From the NCBI GenBank assembly GCA_963714085.1, contig OY970229.1:1152001-1216000 (forward strand): DNA of 64,000 bases, read 5' to 3'. The position numbers and the translations under genes are program-made. Source of the stretch: an uncultured Candidatus Micrarchaeota archaeon. Its GTDB lineage: Archaea > Micrarchaeota > Micrarchaeia > Anstonellales > Bilamarchaeaceae. Shown one piece after another: positions 53,223 to 58,483 of this stretch (the stretch's first letter is position 1; each line of letters starts with the position of its first letter). Below the pieces are notes generated by a model that saw nothing but the letters and a program-made list of their open reading frames with translations, was not told the DNA's origin and did no database searches.

Positions 53223-53917
53223 AGCGCGAGTTCATCAAAAGCGGGATACCCGGCCTGGACAAGATAACCGGGGGCGGGCTGCTCGAGGGCTCCGTGGTCA
53301 CGCTGAGCGGGCCTACGGGGAGCGGCAAGAGCACGTTCGCGATGCAGTTCCTGGTGGAGGGGGCGCTCAAGTTCAAGGAGGCCGGCGTCTACATCGCGAT
53401 AGAGGAGAGCAAGGACTCCATGTACTTCCACATGAGCGGCTATGCCTGGGACCTGGACAAGATGGAGAAAGCCCGGCAGCTGGTCTTCCTGGACTACCCG
53501 GTCTACGAGGTGGACCAGTTCATGAACCAGTACTCCGCCATATTGGAGATCATCAACTCAGTGGGCGCGCGTCGCGTGGTCATAGACTCCATAATGCCCA
53601 TAGCCCTGTTCTTCCCCAACGACGAGGAGAGGAAGAAGGGGTTCCTCAAGTTCATAGACAACATCCGCAAGTGGAACACCACGACGCTCATAGTGTCCGA
53701 GGACACGACATCCGCGGCCGGAGAGGCGCTCCCGGAGACCAAGTACGGCATAGAGACCTTCACGGACGCCTGGATACACATATACAACATATTCTCAGAT
53801 AAGACGAAGGAGCGCACCCGCGAGATCGAGGTGCTCAAGATGAAGGGCGCGGCCCACAGCACGAAGAGATACCCGGCGAAGATAGACGCGAACGGGTTCA
53901 CGATACTGGTCAAATAG
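53219..53917 (+). CDS. KaiC/RAD55-family ATPase
   Basis: SGIPGLD, GPTGSGKS, VIDS, LKMKG. Confidence 0.92.
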   Translation: MKREFIKSGIPGLDKITGGGLLEGSVVTLSGPTGSGKSTFAMQFLVEGALKFKEAGVYIAIEESKDSMYFHMSGYAWDLDKMEKARQLVFLDYPVYEVDQFMNQYSAILEIINSVGARRVVIDSIMPIALFFPNDEERKKGFLKFIDNIRKWNTTTLIVSEDTTSAAGEALPETKYGIETFTDAWIHIYNIFSDKTKERTREIEVLKMKGAAHSTKRYPAKIDANGFTILVK

Positions 53918-54431
53918 GCCTGAGAACGCCCCAGACCAGTTTCCGCTCCTTCTCATCCAGCTTGTCGTAATCGGATTCGTACAGGATTATGCGCTTGCCC
54001 AGCTTCAGGAAACGCGCGGCCGACTCTTTCGTGGCCTCCTCGATTATGACATCGTGCACGATCTCCGCATCTCCGTGGTAGCCCGAAGTTGCGACCCCCA
54101 CCAGCAGCCGCTCGCTTTTTTTCCATTCCGAGAGGTCGGCTCCCAAGTCCAGGACCACCCGCGCCTTCACCTTGATGAGCCTCTCGATCATGTCCTTCTT
54201 CACGCTGCACTCGACCTGGATGTTCACGAAATAGGTGAGCTTGTCGTAGATGTCCATGTTGGACGTGGTCCCCCTGATCGCGTCCAGGTCAGCGATGTGG
54301 ATGAGCTTCGCGCCTTTCTCCGAGAGCTTCCTCACGAGCTGCGTGGGGTTCCCCATCATGCGGAGCGAGCCGTGGTCCATCCTGTACGCCTGCTTGTCCT
54401 TCACGTAGAAAAGAGGTATGTCGAGCGTCAT
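53910..54431 (-). CDS. Truncated HisA/HisF-related barrel protein
   Basis: GNP...GAKLIHIADLDA; only 173 aa. Confidence 0.6.
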   Translation of the reverse strand: MTLDIPLFYVKDKQAYRMDHGSLRMMGNPTQLVRKLSEKGAKLIHIADLDAIRGTTSNMDIYDKLTYFVNIQVECSVKKDMIERLIKVKARVVLDLGADLSEWKKSERLLVGVATSGYHGDAEIVHDVIIEEATKESAARFLKLGKRIILYESDYDKLDEKERKLVWGVLRPI

Positions 54432-54472: not shown

Positions 54473-55714
54473 TCATTTTATTGAACGCACTCTCCCAATC
54501 GCGTCCTCTATCTTCAGGGCCTCCTCCTTCCCGCTCGCCATGTCCCTGAGCGTGACTGTGCCGGCCTCCTTCTCGCGCTCGCCTACGACCGCGACGTAGG
54601 GGATGGACAGAGTGTTCGCGTAGTCAAGTTGTTTTCTTAGGTTGCGCTCGTTGAGGTCGGTCTCGCATTCTATTCCCCCGATGCGGAACTTCGCCGCGAC
54701 CTCTAGAGCATAGGAGTATAACTCGGGTTTTACCACCGCGAGGAAGACACGGGTGTCGGTCTTCTTGACCGCCGTCTTCTTCTCGGTTATGAGTGTCACC
54801 AGCCGTTCGATGCCCACCGATATCCCGGTGGCTGGCGCCGGCTGGCCGTAAACCCCTAATAAGTTGTCGTACCTTCCGCCTCCCATGACGCTGCCCATGC
54901 CCTCGCTGAGACTGACCTCGAACACCGGCCCGGTGTAATATCCGAGGCCGCGCGCAAGCGGAAGGCTTATCTCGATCTCGATTCCGCTGCACAGCTCCAG
55001 TATCTGCTCCAGCTCCTTCGCGCCCTCGGGGCTGTATTTGGCCGCGAGCGATAATTTCTTCTTGTTGTCGCCCTCCGCGTTTATCACGTCGAGGAGCTCC
55101 TTCGCCTTCTTCTTGCCGAGTATCTCCTGGAGCAGCTTGTCCACTTCGGCCTCGCCTATCTTGTCGAGTTTGTCCAGCACGCGGAAAACTTCCCCCTTGC
55201 TCTCGTCAAGCCCGAGCTTGGCGGATATCCCGTCGAGTATCTTGCGGTTGTTGAGCAGGATGCGCGGCTTTCCGAACCCGAACGCGACGCAGAGCGTGTT
55301 CGCGATGGAGAGCAATTCCGCTTCGCATCGCATGGACGGGCTCCCTATTATGTCAGCGTCAGCCTGGTAGAACTCGCGGAACCTTCCTCTCTGCGGCTCC
55401 TCCTTCCTCCAGACCACGTCGACCGCATACCGTTTGAAGGGCTTGGGCGTGTCCGTCCCGGCCGCGTATCTGGCGAGCGGCACCGTGAGGTCGAACCTGA
55501 GCCCGTACTCGTTGCCTTCGATCACGAATATCTGCTTGTCCACCTCGGGGCCGGCTTTTGCCCGGAGCGTCTCAAGGTATTCCATGGCCGGGGTCTCCAG
55601 CGGCCGGTAGCCGTAGAGCTGGAAGGTGCGCCGTATGCCGCCTATGACCTCCTCGCGCACGAACATGTCCTCGGGCCCGATGTCCCGCATTCCTTTCGGA
55701 GTGAGCTTTGCCAT
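54473..55714 (-). CDS. hisS: Histidine--tRNA ligase
   Basis: PKGMRD, LRFDLTVP, GRFREFYQ, ARGLGYYTG, GGGRYD, C-terminal anticodon-binding domain. Confidence 0.96.
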   Translation of the reverse strand: MAKLTPKGMRDIGPEDMFVREEVIGGIRRTFQLYGYRPLETPAMEYLETLRAKAGPEVDKQIFVIEGNEYGLRFDLTVPLARYAAGTDTPKPFKRYAVDVVWRKEEPQRGRFREFYQADADIIGSPSMRCEAELLSIANTLCVAFGFGKPRILLNNRKILDGISAKLGLDESKGEVFRVLDKLDKIGEAEVDKLLQEILGKKKAKELLDVINAEGDNKKKLSLAAKYSPEGAKELEQILELCSGIEIEISLPLARGLGYYTGPVFEVSLSEGMGSVMGGGRYDNLLGVYGQPAPATGISVGIERLVTLITEKKTAVKKTDTRVFLAVVKPELYSYALEVAAKFRIGGIECETDLNERNLRKQLDYANTLSIPYVAVVGEREKEAGTVTLRDMASGKEEALKIEDAIGRVRSIK

Positions 55715-55757
55715 GGTAACCACTTTCTACTTTCGGATTTAAAAAATGGAAAGAAAA

Positions 55758-56168
55758 TCAAGGGATGGCCGGGTAGCGCTGCCCCTTTTTCTTCGTCATG
55801 GTCCGGCGCAGTATCTCGCCCAGCACGTCCTCTATCCGGACGCCCCTGTTCACGAGGTACAACTGGACGAAATACAGCAGGTCCGCCGCCTCCCATATCA
55901 GGTTCCTCTCCCCGCGCGCGGTTATCAGCTCGACCGATTCCTCTATGACCTTCTTGCGTATCTTCCTGGGGTCGGCTAGGAGCTGCGACGTGTACGACCC
56001 CGGGTCGGGATTCCGCTCGCGCTCCCGTATCATGGCGGTCTCGAGCTGCAGGGCGAGCGCTGACGGTCCGGACCGCCGGATCATCGCGTCGATATCCCTT
56101 TTCCCGAAAACCTCTGCCGGGTCGGGCAGGGCCTGCTTTTTCGGCGTTCGTATTTTTCTCATGGCCAT
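55758..56168 (-). CDS. hisE: Phosphoribosyl-ATP pyrophosphatase
   Basis: GSYTSQLL, KKVIEESVE, EAADLLYF. Confidence 0.88.
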   Translation of the reverse strand: MAMRKIRTPKKQALPDPAEVFGKRDIDAMIRRSGPSALALQLETAMIRERERNPDPGSYTSQLLADPRKIRKKVIEESVELITARGERNLIWEAADLLYFVQLYLVNRGVRIEDVLGEILRRTMTKKKGQRYPAIP

Positions 56169-56172
56169 CGCC

Positions 56173-57021
56173 TCAGAGGACTATCAGCCTGGGCTCTGTG
56201 ACAACGATGCCAGAGCCCCCGTTCCCTTTCAGCGCCACCACCAGGTCCTCTATGCCTTTCTCCGGCACCGCCGCGGTCAGGGCGTAACCGCCGCCCACGA
56301 TGGGGCTGACGTCAGGATTTTTCAGGGCCGGAAGGATTTTCACCAGCTCGTCCCTTATCAGGTCCGTAGCCGCGTTTACCCGGACCATCAGGCGTTTTCG
56401 CGCTTCTATCACCGCTCTCAGGCAAAGCTCAATCCGGTCGATCTCCGGCTTCCTGCTTTTCAGGGATGCGGGATTCGCTAAAAGCCTCACCCGCGATTCC
56501 ATCAGCACCTTCAGGATGCGCAGGCCGTTCTCGCGCAACGTGGTGCCGGTGTCCACCTGGTCCACTATGGCTTCGGCTATGCGGAAGAACGGCGCGGTCT
56601 CAAGCGCGCCCTGGAGCCGGATTATCTTCGCGCTGCGGCAGTAACGCTCGGCGAGATTAGGCATCGTGGTGGCGATGCTTTCCGGCTCCCTTATCCTCGG
56701 CGGTGCCGCGAGGGCCACCTTGCAGGCCCCGAAATCCAGTTCCATCACCACCGCGAGGTCCCTTATGCGCCCCCAGGAGGGCGTGGTACAAAGGCCGCAC
56801 TCCGCAACGGCATCGTCGCCGGCAATGCCGATGTCCGCGGCACCGCGCGCCACGAACAACGGTATGTCCATGGCGCGTGCCAGCAGCAGCCGCACCCCTG
56901 CCCGAGACGTCGGGACGATGAGCTTCCGGTCGTCTCCGCCAAGGGCCTTCATGCCCGCGTCCTCAAGGAGCCTGAACAACGGCTCCCTCATCCTGCCCTT
57001 GTTGGGCACCGCTATGGTCAC
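56173..57021 (-). CDS. hisG: ATP phosphoribosyltransferase, long form; predicted to be made from ATG 57076 via a +1 frameshift
   Basis: IAVPNKGR, DIP..V..G..DIGIAG, GALE.AP, IVDQVDTGTTLRENGL, C-terminal regulatory domain. Confidence 0.93.
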   Translation of the reverse strand: MTIAVPNKGRMREPLFRLLEDAGMKALGGDDRKLIVPTSRAGVRLLLARAMDIPLFVARGAADIGIAGDDAVAECGLCTTPSWGRIRDLAVVMELDFGACKVALAAPPRIREPESIATTMPNLAERYCRSAKIIRLQGALETAPFFRIAEAIVDQVDTGTTLRENGLRILKVLMESRVRLLANPASLKSRKPEIDRIELCLRAVIEARKRLMVRVNAATDLIRDELVKILPALKNPDVSPIVGGGYALTAAVPEKGIEDLVVALKGNGGSGIVVTEPRLIVL

Positions 57022-57334
57022 TTCATTCGTGAAGTAAACCCCTTCCTTTTTTCACCTTGTTTTCCATTCCATTCATTTTTCACACCTCCTTGTTTTTTCT
57101 CTACATAGCTCCCGTTTCGGGAGAATGCGCACGATTCAACGTTTTCCGGAGCTCTCGCTATGCTTGCGTTTATCCTGCCGCCTTGCGCGGCGCTCACGTT
57201 CAGGAGTATTTTTTCCCCGGTTCTGATCCCGATGGCGTCCCTTATCTCCAAGGGTAAGACTAGCCGGCCCTTCCTGTCAAGCCGGATGAAGCAAATCCCT
57301 TCCCATGAAGGACATCCCTTCCTTGTTTCTCCAT
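57018..57334 (-). CDS. AbrB/MazE/SpoVT-family DNA-binding protein (104 aa), predicted to need two +1 frameshifts
   Basis: IRLDRKGRLVLPLEIRDAIGIRTGEKI AbrB signature has no in-frame ATG/GTG/TTG upstream; the SD-led ATG at 57334 reaches it by +1 shifts at 57310 and 57291. Confidence 0.8.
57023..57076 (-). CDS. hisG leader peptide MNGMENKVKKGRGLLHE* (unshifted product)
   Basis: Strong SD AGGAGGTG; its single His codon sits in the shift cassette. Confidence 0.75.
   Translation of the reverse strand: MNGMENKVKKGRGLLHE
57029..57046 (-). promoter_or_regulatory. Predicted His-sensing +1 frameshift site 3 (GGA AGG GGT TTA CTT CAC)
   Basis: prfB-like SD-like/3-nt/CTT geometry; the +1 frame is hisG. 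Confidence 0.8.
57286..57303 (-). promoter_or_regulatory. Predicted His-sensing +1 frameshift site 2 (GGA AGG GAT TTG CTT CAT)
   Basis: The +1 frame enters the AbrB domain. Confidence 0.8.
57305..57322 (-). promoter_or_regulatory. Predicted His-sensing +1 frameshift site 1 (GGA AGG GAT GTC CTT CAT)
   Basis: The +1 frame places site 2 in register. Confidence 0.78.
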
Positions 57335-57478
57335 CGTTTTCACCTTGTTCGCATGGTCATTGTGATTTTTCCCACTATTTATTTGTTTGTAACAAAATCC
57401 ATCCTCGTCTATTGCTCCCCTCTCCCCGGGTTTTCTGTTGCAGTACGTCTTTTAAACTGATTCAACGAAATTAGCGTA

Positions 57479-58483
57479 ATGGCGATCATGCGGAACAAGC
57501 AGCCGCGCCTGTGGTGGGTGAACGCACAGACCCCAGGTAACGGCCAGCCCCTCTCAAGAAGCAACTCCGCGATACTGCCGGCTGACAGGCAGAACAAAGC
57601 CAGGATATTCTGCAGCCGTAAAGAACTCTCGTTCTCCGCGCAAATGCTCAAGGGAAGGGAGAGGAGCATATGCCAGGATACCATCGCGATGCTCGTGCGC
57701 GACGACATCATCATGGCAGCGGTGCTCGACGGCCACGAAAGCTGGGGTCATTTGTACTCCCTTGAGATGGCGCGCTGCCTGGTCCGTTTAGCCAGGCACC
57801 TGCGGACGCCGACCGGGCCCGATGCCAAGCAGCTCATCATCGAAGCTGCGAAGGCCATGCCGTTTCTCCCCAGCGAAGACTATCTCGAGGCCTTGCTCGG
57901 AGCCCCGAAGAAAGGAGGCACCACGGTGACAGTGGCGCTGTTGGGCAGGGACCGCAGGTACAGCATAGCCACGCTTGGCGACTCGCCGCCGTACCTGGTC
58001 GGGCACGGCTCCGCGAAGCGGCTGTCTGACAGCTCCTGCATCTTGGACATCGATAGAAAAGACGAGGGCGGCCGCCTGTTCATAGGCAAAGACATCGTCC
58101 AATGGGATGATTATCTCGAAGTGCGGAATTACATATTCGGAGCGGTCAACGGATTCGTCACCACCAAGTCGGAGATACAAGTCAAGGAAGGCGAGCTGGA
58201 ACGCGGCATGAAGCTGGTGCTGGTGAGCGACGGGATAACGAAGAACCTCTCATGCGTCACGGACCTTTCCATGAACGTGCTTGATGTGAGCGGCAATCTT
58301 GACATGGCCCGGATCATGCGCGATGGCATGACGCTGACCGAAGCCACCTCGCGCTTGTTATCGGTCGCCCGCAGCCGCGCGGATGGCAAGAGCGGACCCA
58401 CTTTCCGGTCCAACGGTGAGCGCCTCGAGGTCGTTTCACCGGCTGACGATGACATGACCGTGATAGCGCTCGCAGCGGACTGA
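57479..58483 (+). CDS. PP2C/PPM-family phosphatase
   Basis: CQD, VLDGH, GGTT, LGDS, VSDG, DDMT. Confidence 0.85.
   Translation: MAIMRNKQPRLWWVNAQTPGNGQPLSRSNSAILPADRQNKARIFCSRKELSFSAQMLKGRERSICQDTIAMLVRDDIIMAAVLDGHESWGHLYSLEMARCLVRLARHLRTPTGPDAKQLIIEAAKAMPFLPSEDYLEALLGAPKKGGTTVTVALLGRDRRYSIATLGDSPPYLVGHGSAKRLSDSSCILDIDRKDEGGRLFIGKDIVQWDDYLEVRNYIFGAVNGFVTTKSEIQVKEGELERGMKLVLVSDGITKNLSCVTDLSMNVLDVSGNLDMARIMRDGMTLTEATSRLLSVARSRADGKSGPTFRSNGERLEVVSPADDDMTVIALAAD

Follow-up and report, generated by a model that had tools for sequence, protein, structure and literature searches.

In a 64,000-nucleotide stretch of DNA from an uncultured Candidatus Micrarchaeota archaeon (assembly GCA_963714085.1, contig OY970229.1, positions 1,152,001 to 1,216,000; hereafter the window), a gene cluster at 54473..57334 on the minus strand encodes an AbrB-like protein, HisG, HisE and HisS, all of which lack histidine. 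Judging from the sequence, it is very likely that the AbrB-like protein and HisG lie behind a +1 frameshift switch that senses a shortage of charged tRNA-His, and likely that both have been selected to be histidine-free so that they can be completed during that same shortage. HisE and HisS are histidine-free mainly through a family-wide bias against the cognate amino acid that does not need the switch. On a broader scale, Micrarchaeota probably possess a modular hungry-codon switch, in which a +1 cassette resembling that of release factor 2 (RF2) has its A-site codon exchanged for one of His, Trp, Cys, Pro or Phe, is stacked in tandem, and precedes cargo purged of the sensed residue. The genome studied here consists of a single 1.57-Mb contig with a GC content of 57% and a marker completeness of 87.65%.

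Anatomy of the cassettes

All three candidate shift sites share one layout: a 9-mer GGAAGGGRT resembling a Shine-Dalgarno (SD) sequence at -12 to -4, three bases, CTT, and the histidine codon CAY. The unshifted leader frame stops 3–16 codons on, and the gene is carried by the +1 frame. Two sites lie in the AbrB-like gene (57018..57334, minus strand like all features below; start ATG 57334), namely cassette 1 at 57305..57322 (GGAAGGGAT GTC CTT CAT) and, 19 nt past it, cassette 2 at 57286..57303 (GGAAGGGAT TTG CTT CAT). Two +1 shifts, with each CTTC counted as a single step, give a translation of 104 aa. It matches the profiles TIGR01439 (E=5.9e-6, 25.9 bits, below the cut-off of 28.3) and PF04014 (E=0.003), and the AbrB-like motif is kept across 18 aligned tails. 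Cassette 3 at 57029..57046 (GGAAGGGGT TTA CTT CAC) heads hisG, the long form of ATP phosphoribosyltransferase (56173..57076; PF01634 1.7e-36, PF08029 2.9e-9), which lies in the +1 frame relative to a short leader open reading frame (ORF), MNGMENKVKKGRGLL-H-E-stop, with its own SD GGAGGTG and an ATG at 57076 (57023..57089). HisG comprises 300 aa if the leader is joined to it by a single +1 shift, and 282 aa if translation begins at GTG 57021. The abrB frame crosses the hisG leader, its stop overlapping this GTG; in most relatives the abrB frame stops on or near the ATG of the next leader.

The strict motif occurs three times genome-wide, every time at this locus, and no other leader-type cassette for any codon was found in this genome. 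The 3' end of the 16S ribosomal RNA, AUCACCUCC, pairs with the SD-like 9-mer at 7/9 positions, and variants of the 9-mer in relatives (e.g. GGTGAA) keep the register to the anti-SD. Its distance to the shift codon is 3 nt, the spacing that the consulted part of a 2016 review gives for +1 shifts (PMC5009743). CTT occupies the P site at all three sites; CUU is a minor leucine codon in this genome (3,265 of ~40,000), and a tRNA-Leu(GAG) gene is present. A minority of relatives carry GTT, CTC, ATT or GGC instead, and in the AbrB loci L409, L412, L413, L415, L419 and L420 the break reads GGC CAC, the P-site codon being changed and the histidine codon retained. Four folded segments revealed no stimulatory or attenuator RNA structure (z between -1.7 and +0.6), and the hisG leader is nearly unpaired (minimum free energy -3.9 kcal/mol, z 0.58).

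Conservation across Micrarchaeota

The exact 19-nt tandem pair was found in 16/401 genomes of the phylum and, with at most two mismatches, in 27/99 genomes of the family, the reversed control giving 0 in both searches. When the A-site codon was left free, 16 of 17 matches across 257 genomes had CAY (control: 3). A motif search of GTDB returned 30 matches, of which nine from outside Micrarchaeota were discarded as tandem repeats or chance coding matches; Micrarchaeota account for 18 of the 21 relevant ones. In other families (f1, f6, f8, f14, f16, f17, f22, f23, f26 and f34) single cassettes head hisD, hisG, hisG-hisD fusions, hisF or hisI, and f13 and f15 have one AbrB cassette each upstream of his genes. 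An arrangement at hisG like that of cassette 3 recurs in G318, G304, G143, G309, G419 and G421.

Similarly, AbrB loci collected from metagenomes by protein alone (n=48) show where the frame breaks. After setting aside four duplicates, one unrelated locus, two truncated and two ambiguous ones, the break lies at a histidine codon in 38 of 39 judged loci, some of which may duplicate genome loci, and at a tryptophan codon in one. In some loci a shift appears unavoidable, because hisG has no ATG, GTG or TTG at the normal start position (G304, G143) or because a TAG in the +1 frame directly precedes GTT CAT (G293, G269, G035).

Variations on the arrangement were also seen. In G343 (L247:6018-6155) the cassette leads into an ORF of 45 aa, the stop of which overlaps the ATG of hisG (TGATG), which is coupling rather than fusion. 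L259 (G063), L268 (G149) and L266 (G249) carry a tRNA-His gene directly upstream of hisD or hisG, and in G063 and G149 the short +1 ORF of the cassette spans it. For the genome studied here, no convincing location of a tRNA-His gene was found.

Cargo proteins and exchange of the A-site codon

The original prediction proposed, for all four proteins, selection to remain translatable during histidine starvation. This idea is strongly supported by cargo outside the four, and HisS and HisE add little to it. Directly behind histidine cassettes we found 25 proteins from outside the core histidine pathway, in 8 clusters (one of them HisRS-like), which together hold 6 histidines where 135 would be expected from the residue frequencies of the present genome; with one protein per cluster the figures are 4.7 and 40.3. 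Three of the six residues belong to a VanX-like peptidase. A 34-protein cargo family with a median identity of 51% has 1 histidine in 11,879 residues, and no ortholog of this family without a cassette was identified. Its structural model resembles tyrosyl-tRNA synthetase (TyrRS; Z 14.5, root-mean-square deviation 4.5, 273 aligned).

The cargo includes a VanX-like D-Ala-D-Ala dipeptidase (L129:6349-7089, G010), several radical SAM proteins (L052, L392, L426) and the TyrRS-like family, of ~355 aa and with a TyrRS/TrpRS-like fold (L107:7236-8300, L045:7973-9043, P0003-P0036), which is histidine-free and lacks the HIGH motif. In some loci this family is followed by an Asp/Glu-type racemase, a type of enzyme that usually carries the motif CNTAH; in G267 CNTMQ stands at this position. 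Histidine-free HisRS-like paralogs also lie behind histidine cassettes, beside a normal hisS (L412:4194-5315, L419:2342-3568, L406:3937-4935).

The sensed codon can differ, and the missing residue differs with it. In L391 CTT TGG stands at the sites of both AbrB and cargo. Its two cargo genes, one for a radical SAM protein and, behind it, one for an EgtD-like methyltransferase, encode 8 histidines each and no tryptophan. A search for A-site codons other than histidine gave 60 matches in 176 genomes against 22 in the control. Among the 52 matches examined, 8 of the 60 having been left out, 27 show a short leader with a +1 ORF, a class chosen by eye, and 25 look like chance, comparable to the 22 of the control. 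UGG cassettes head trpE (G006, G016, G033), UGC cassettes the cysteine synthases CBS/cysK or small coupled ORFs, CCN cassettes proC and proB, and UUC cassettes ORFs free of phenylalanine. In each set the residue that its cassette would sense is absent or under-used, with observed over expected counts of 2/17.4 for Trp (His being normal in that set, 36/28.9), 2/10.4 for Cys, 5/24.7 for Phe and 33/68 for Pro.

One genome, G006, combines cassettes for histidine (AbrB, hisD), proline (proC, proB), cysteine and tryptophan (trpE) in L120, L473, L474 and L475. Phenylalanine cassettes (L438, L446, L460, L468, L472) and cysteine cassettes (L469, L470, L474) also head ORFs of 59–78 aa that belong to no known family, and in three phenylalanine loci such small ORFs are coupled to Phe-free proteins of 169–188 aa with no assigned function.

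Histidine absence in the four proteins and their orthologs

The translations bear out that the AbrB-like protein (104 aa), HisG (300 aa), HisE (136 aa) and HisS (413 aa) hold no histidine, that the HisA-like neighbour holds four, and that the HisE motif reads EAADLLYF. That this absence exceeds chance also stands; the expected count had been put near 19, and at the proteome-wide frequency of 1.56% (1,377 proteins and 444,026 residues from a gene caller) it is 14.9 in 953 residues. The corresponding binomial probability of 3e-7 was rejected as a measure of rarity, since histidine-free proteins are overdispersed in this genome and the figure therefore overstates it. Among proteins of at least 400 aa, 6/285 are histidine-free against 0.14 expected, and zero-histidine runs of consecutive genes totalling at least 830 aa number 3/1,377 (~0.2%), this locus included; the other two runs resemble secreted or membrane clusters. 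The histidine-free run is thus real and unusual, though less extreme than the binomial figure implies. A soluble-looking protein of 456 aa elsewhere in the genome (G000:C1:438100-439470), presumably DnaG-like, is also histidine-free and has no cassette.

For HisS and HisE, two of the four proteins, orthologs without a cassette proved largely as histidine-free as those with one. HisS lacks histidine in 30/42 family genomes with a cassette and in 28/45 without (p=0.45), in classes that leaked, as G205, G238, G326, G051, G063 and G149 carry variant cassettes. An earlier split, 16/24 against 40/62, was superseded, single cassettes having been hidden in its cassette-free class. Restricted to well-assembled loci the figures become 23/30 against 13/27 (p=0.03), a split that missed an upstream pair in G269, G025 and G299 and reads 25/33 against 12/25 after correction by hand. 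Inside the largest genus the difference is not significant (13/18 against 4/8, p=0.38), and a cassette-linked HisS may hold up to 6 histidines. Elsewhere, HisS is histidine-free in 5/29 genomes of another order and in 0/30 of the phylum of a Methanotrichaceae record. HisE lacks histidine in 22/22 family members, and the change from H to F in its motif is family-wide; the histidine is retained in G110, G210, G283, G345, G385 and G043, cassette-bearing genomes of other families.

HisG behaves differently when it is headed by a cassette. Directly behind one, it is histidine-free in 14/14 cases (judged on the aligned region, with short forms and fusions counted in), and its mean histidine count is 0.58 with a cassette and 1.52 without. 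The family as a whole is poor in histidine, with means of 0.5–0.8 for HisG against 3.1–3.8 in two outgroup archaeal phyla and ~0.7 for HisS against 2.3 and 4.8. The suggestion that histidine absence independently supports the frameshift sensor accordingly draws strong support from the cargo genes and the headed HisG, and little from HisS and HisE.

A possible mechanism and its alternatives

During a shortage of charged tRNA-His, ribosomes would stall at the histidine codon with an empty A site and peptidyl-tRNA-Leu on CUU. Pairing between SD and anti-SD could then make tRNA-Leu slip by +1 from CUU onto UUC and so bring the ribosome into the coding frame, as in prfB, the gene of RF2. With plentiful histidine, charged tRNA-His would compete with the slip and the leader would be read on to its nearby stop. 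Output would thus rise during histidine starvation, and a histidine-free body would let the shifted ribosome finish. The two shifts in abrB and the overlap of its stop with the start of the next reading frame may sharpen the response. What the sequences show is the layout, the frame, its conservation, the fit between codon and pathway and the depletion of residues; slippage, its dependence on starvation, the coupling and the selection are deduced from these.

Several points weigh against this reading. The P-site variants GTT, CTC, ATT and GGC re-pair worse than CUU after a shift, and the in-frame GTG 57021, overlapped by the abrB stop, would allow hisG to start without a third shift. Throughout the phylum, histidine enzymes hold close to the catalytic minimum of histidine, even in cases in which no cassette was found (HisC has none in 15/17), and in a quick tree the HisG clade of the type studied here represents a single event and includes G034, which is histidine-free without a direct cassette. 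The cargo deficits depend on expected counts from a single genome, the codon-exchange class on inspection by eye of an incomplete set of matches; its sets are small, related and partly biosynthetic, kin not being independent, and TrpE, CysK and ProC are expected to show cognate bias anyway. Finally, a search of this genome that covered hisD, hisB, hisI and hisA/F did not find the first three, and matches to HisA/F are weak. HisG and HisE alone convert ATP and phosphoribosyl pyrophosphate to phosphoribosyl-AMP, not to histidine. As hisD, hisB and hisI are lacking, induction here cannot yield histidine, and the locus might be a remnant in decay or have some other function. Partial his sets also occur in G001, G318, G304 and G419.

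Among the alternatives, the one that survives best, while still unlikely, is that the histidine-free state reflects lineage-wide cognate bias alone and says nothing about the cassette. The cassette-less HisS orthologs, the uniformly histidine-free HisE and the near-constant zero in HisC all fit it, and we accept it as the account for HisS and HisE. It leaves unexplained why radical SAM, TyrRS-fold, VanX-like and unassigned cargo are so depleted, and why L391 switches to avoiding tryptophan. We give a small chance to a second idea, in which ribosomes stall at the cognate codon without shifting and the stall, or translation of the leader, makes an internal start accessible, for example GTG 57021. 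An in-frame GTG does lie at the usual HisG start here and in G318, and ATGs lie nearby in some cargo; on the other side, G304, G143 and many AbrB tails have no start at that position, the gene sits in the +1 frame, CUU is kept though it is a minor leucine codon, there are no notable hairpins, and each site has a single cognate codon. Comparably improbable is an unregulated cassette that limits expression through a fixed low rate of frameshifting. An SD placed 3 nt before CUU is able to stimulate shifting by itself, yet a fixed rate does not account for the agreement between the A-site codon and the amino acid that the pathway behind it makes, seen for His, Trp, Cys and Pro, nor for the use of both CAU and CAC. 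Errors of assembly or decay into pseudogenes, at which the incomplete pathway might hint, can be dismissed as the origin of the frame breaks, since 27 genomes of the family and genomes of other families have identical breaks, and a short-read contig, possibly from the source sample, spans 56893-57546 and all three cassette sites with 0 gaps.

Remaining features of the locus

Downstream of hisG follow hisE (phosphoribosyl-ATP pyrophosphohydrolase; 55758..56168; PF01503 2.5e-15) and hisS (histidyl-tRNA synthetase; 54473..55714, or 416 aa from an upstream GTG; PF13393 2.1e-42, PF03129). Between them, at 55737..55757, lie a T-tract and TTTAAAT, likely a terminator plus a separate hisS promoter. 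Similar T-tracts with AT-rich, promoter-like stretches occur upstream of hisS in cassette-less genomes; because of this, and because hisS is essential, strict control by the cassette is unlikely and hisS probably stands outside it. Describing the locus as a frameshift-controlled operon of four genes was therefore probably an overstatement. The HisA-like ORF (53910-54431) is truncated and lies outside the histidine-free set; such an ORF often follows hisS, with or without a cassette.

Upstream of abrB, a conserved promoter-like motif, TAAATAGTGGGAAA, combines a TATA-like box with GTGGGAAA (57368..57381), and in relatives most double cassettes are preceded, at a distance of 56–115 nt, by the whole motif or its core AGTGGGAA. 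The GTGGGAAA part is a possible AbrB operator. A sigma-70 promoter scan was set aside as uninformative for archaea.

Comparison with known systems

The switch would combine RF2-type shifting with the logic of attenuation, and it is a member of neither family. As in prfB (PMC5009743, PMC3711429), an internal SD precedes the shift codon by 3 nt and CUU occupies the P site, while the A site would be slow and a short zero-frame leader would be fused to the +1 frame. Unlike prfB, its A site holds the sense codon CAU or CAC instead of UGA, its products are an AbrB-like protein and HisG instead of a release factor, and it would sense charged tRNA; it is also archaeal, modular over many genes and present as tandem double sites. 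Slippage from CUU when a sense codon in the A site is decoded slowly is likewise known from Ty1 (CUU_AGG) and from 'hungry codon' shifting in the laboratory. The +1 shift of Ty1 relies on a rare tRNA, and Ty1, unlike the cassette, is not known to have an SD. As far as the consulted part of the 2016 review goes, no example is known in which hungry-codon shifting yields starvation-specific trans-frame proteins (PMC5009743).

The short translated leader with a cognate codon and the control via the supply of charged tRNA recall the leader-peptide attenuators of his, trp and phe operons. In contrast to these, each leader has one histidine codon and no run, there are no alternative terminator and antiterminator hairpins, and the response would consist in a switch of reading frame, not in termination of transcription. 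Antizyme similarly uses a frameshift both to sense a metabolite and to act in the loop that controls it (PMC5009743), but is eukaryotic, driven by polyamines and has a stop codon in the A site. Enzymes with cognate bias under-use their own residue (Alves and Savageau; PMC4209129, from an excerpt); here, unlike there, the loss is near-total, reaches cargo outside the pathway and switches with the sensed codon. Among archaea, Saccharolobus fucA1 also depends on a frameshift and was, according to the relevant part of a 2021 review, the sole case reported by then (PMC8211752); it differs in its -1 direction, in concerning one gene and in not sensing an amino acid. No description of the cassette was found in the papers searched, a scope that leaves out most subscription journals. 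Among these papers it would, if true, be both the first natural regulatory starvation frameshift and the first programmed +1 shift in archaea.

Implications

If true, the frameshift switch would join attenuators, T-boxes and riboswitches as a new class of control by amino acids, and would mean that elongating archaeal ribosomes scan with their anti-SD. The 18-nt cassette makes the use of hungry codons and archaeal frameshifting testable with reporters, and biosensors would gain a useful part in an amino-acid sensor that can be programmed by its codon. Many annotations would be corrected, as the leading genes of operons for his, trp, cys and pro have been called broken or given wrong starts, and the combination of a cassette with the missing residue marks unassigned genes, such as the TyrRS-fold family, as likely members of a starvation response. 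The switch, if true, would account for how biosynthesis is regulated in the small-genome DPANN archaea.

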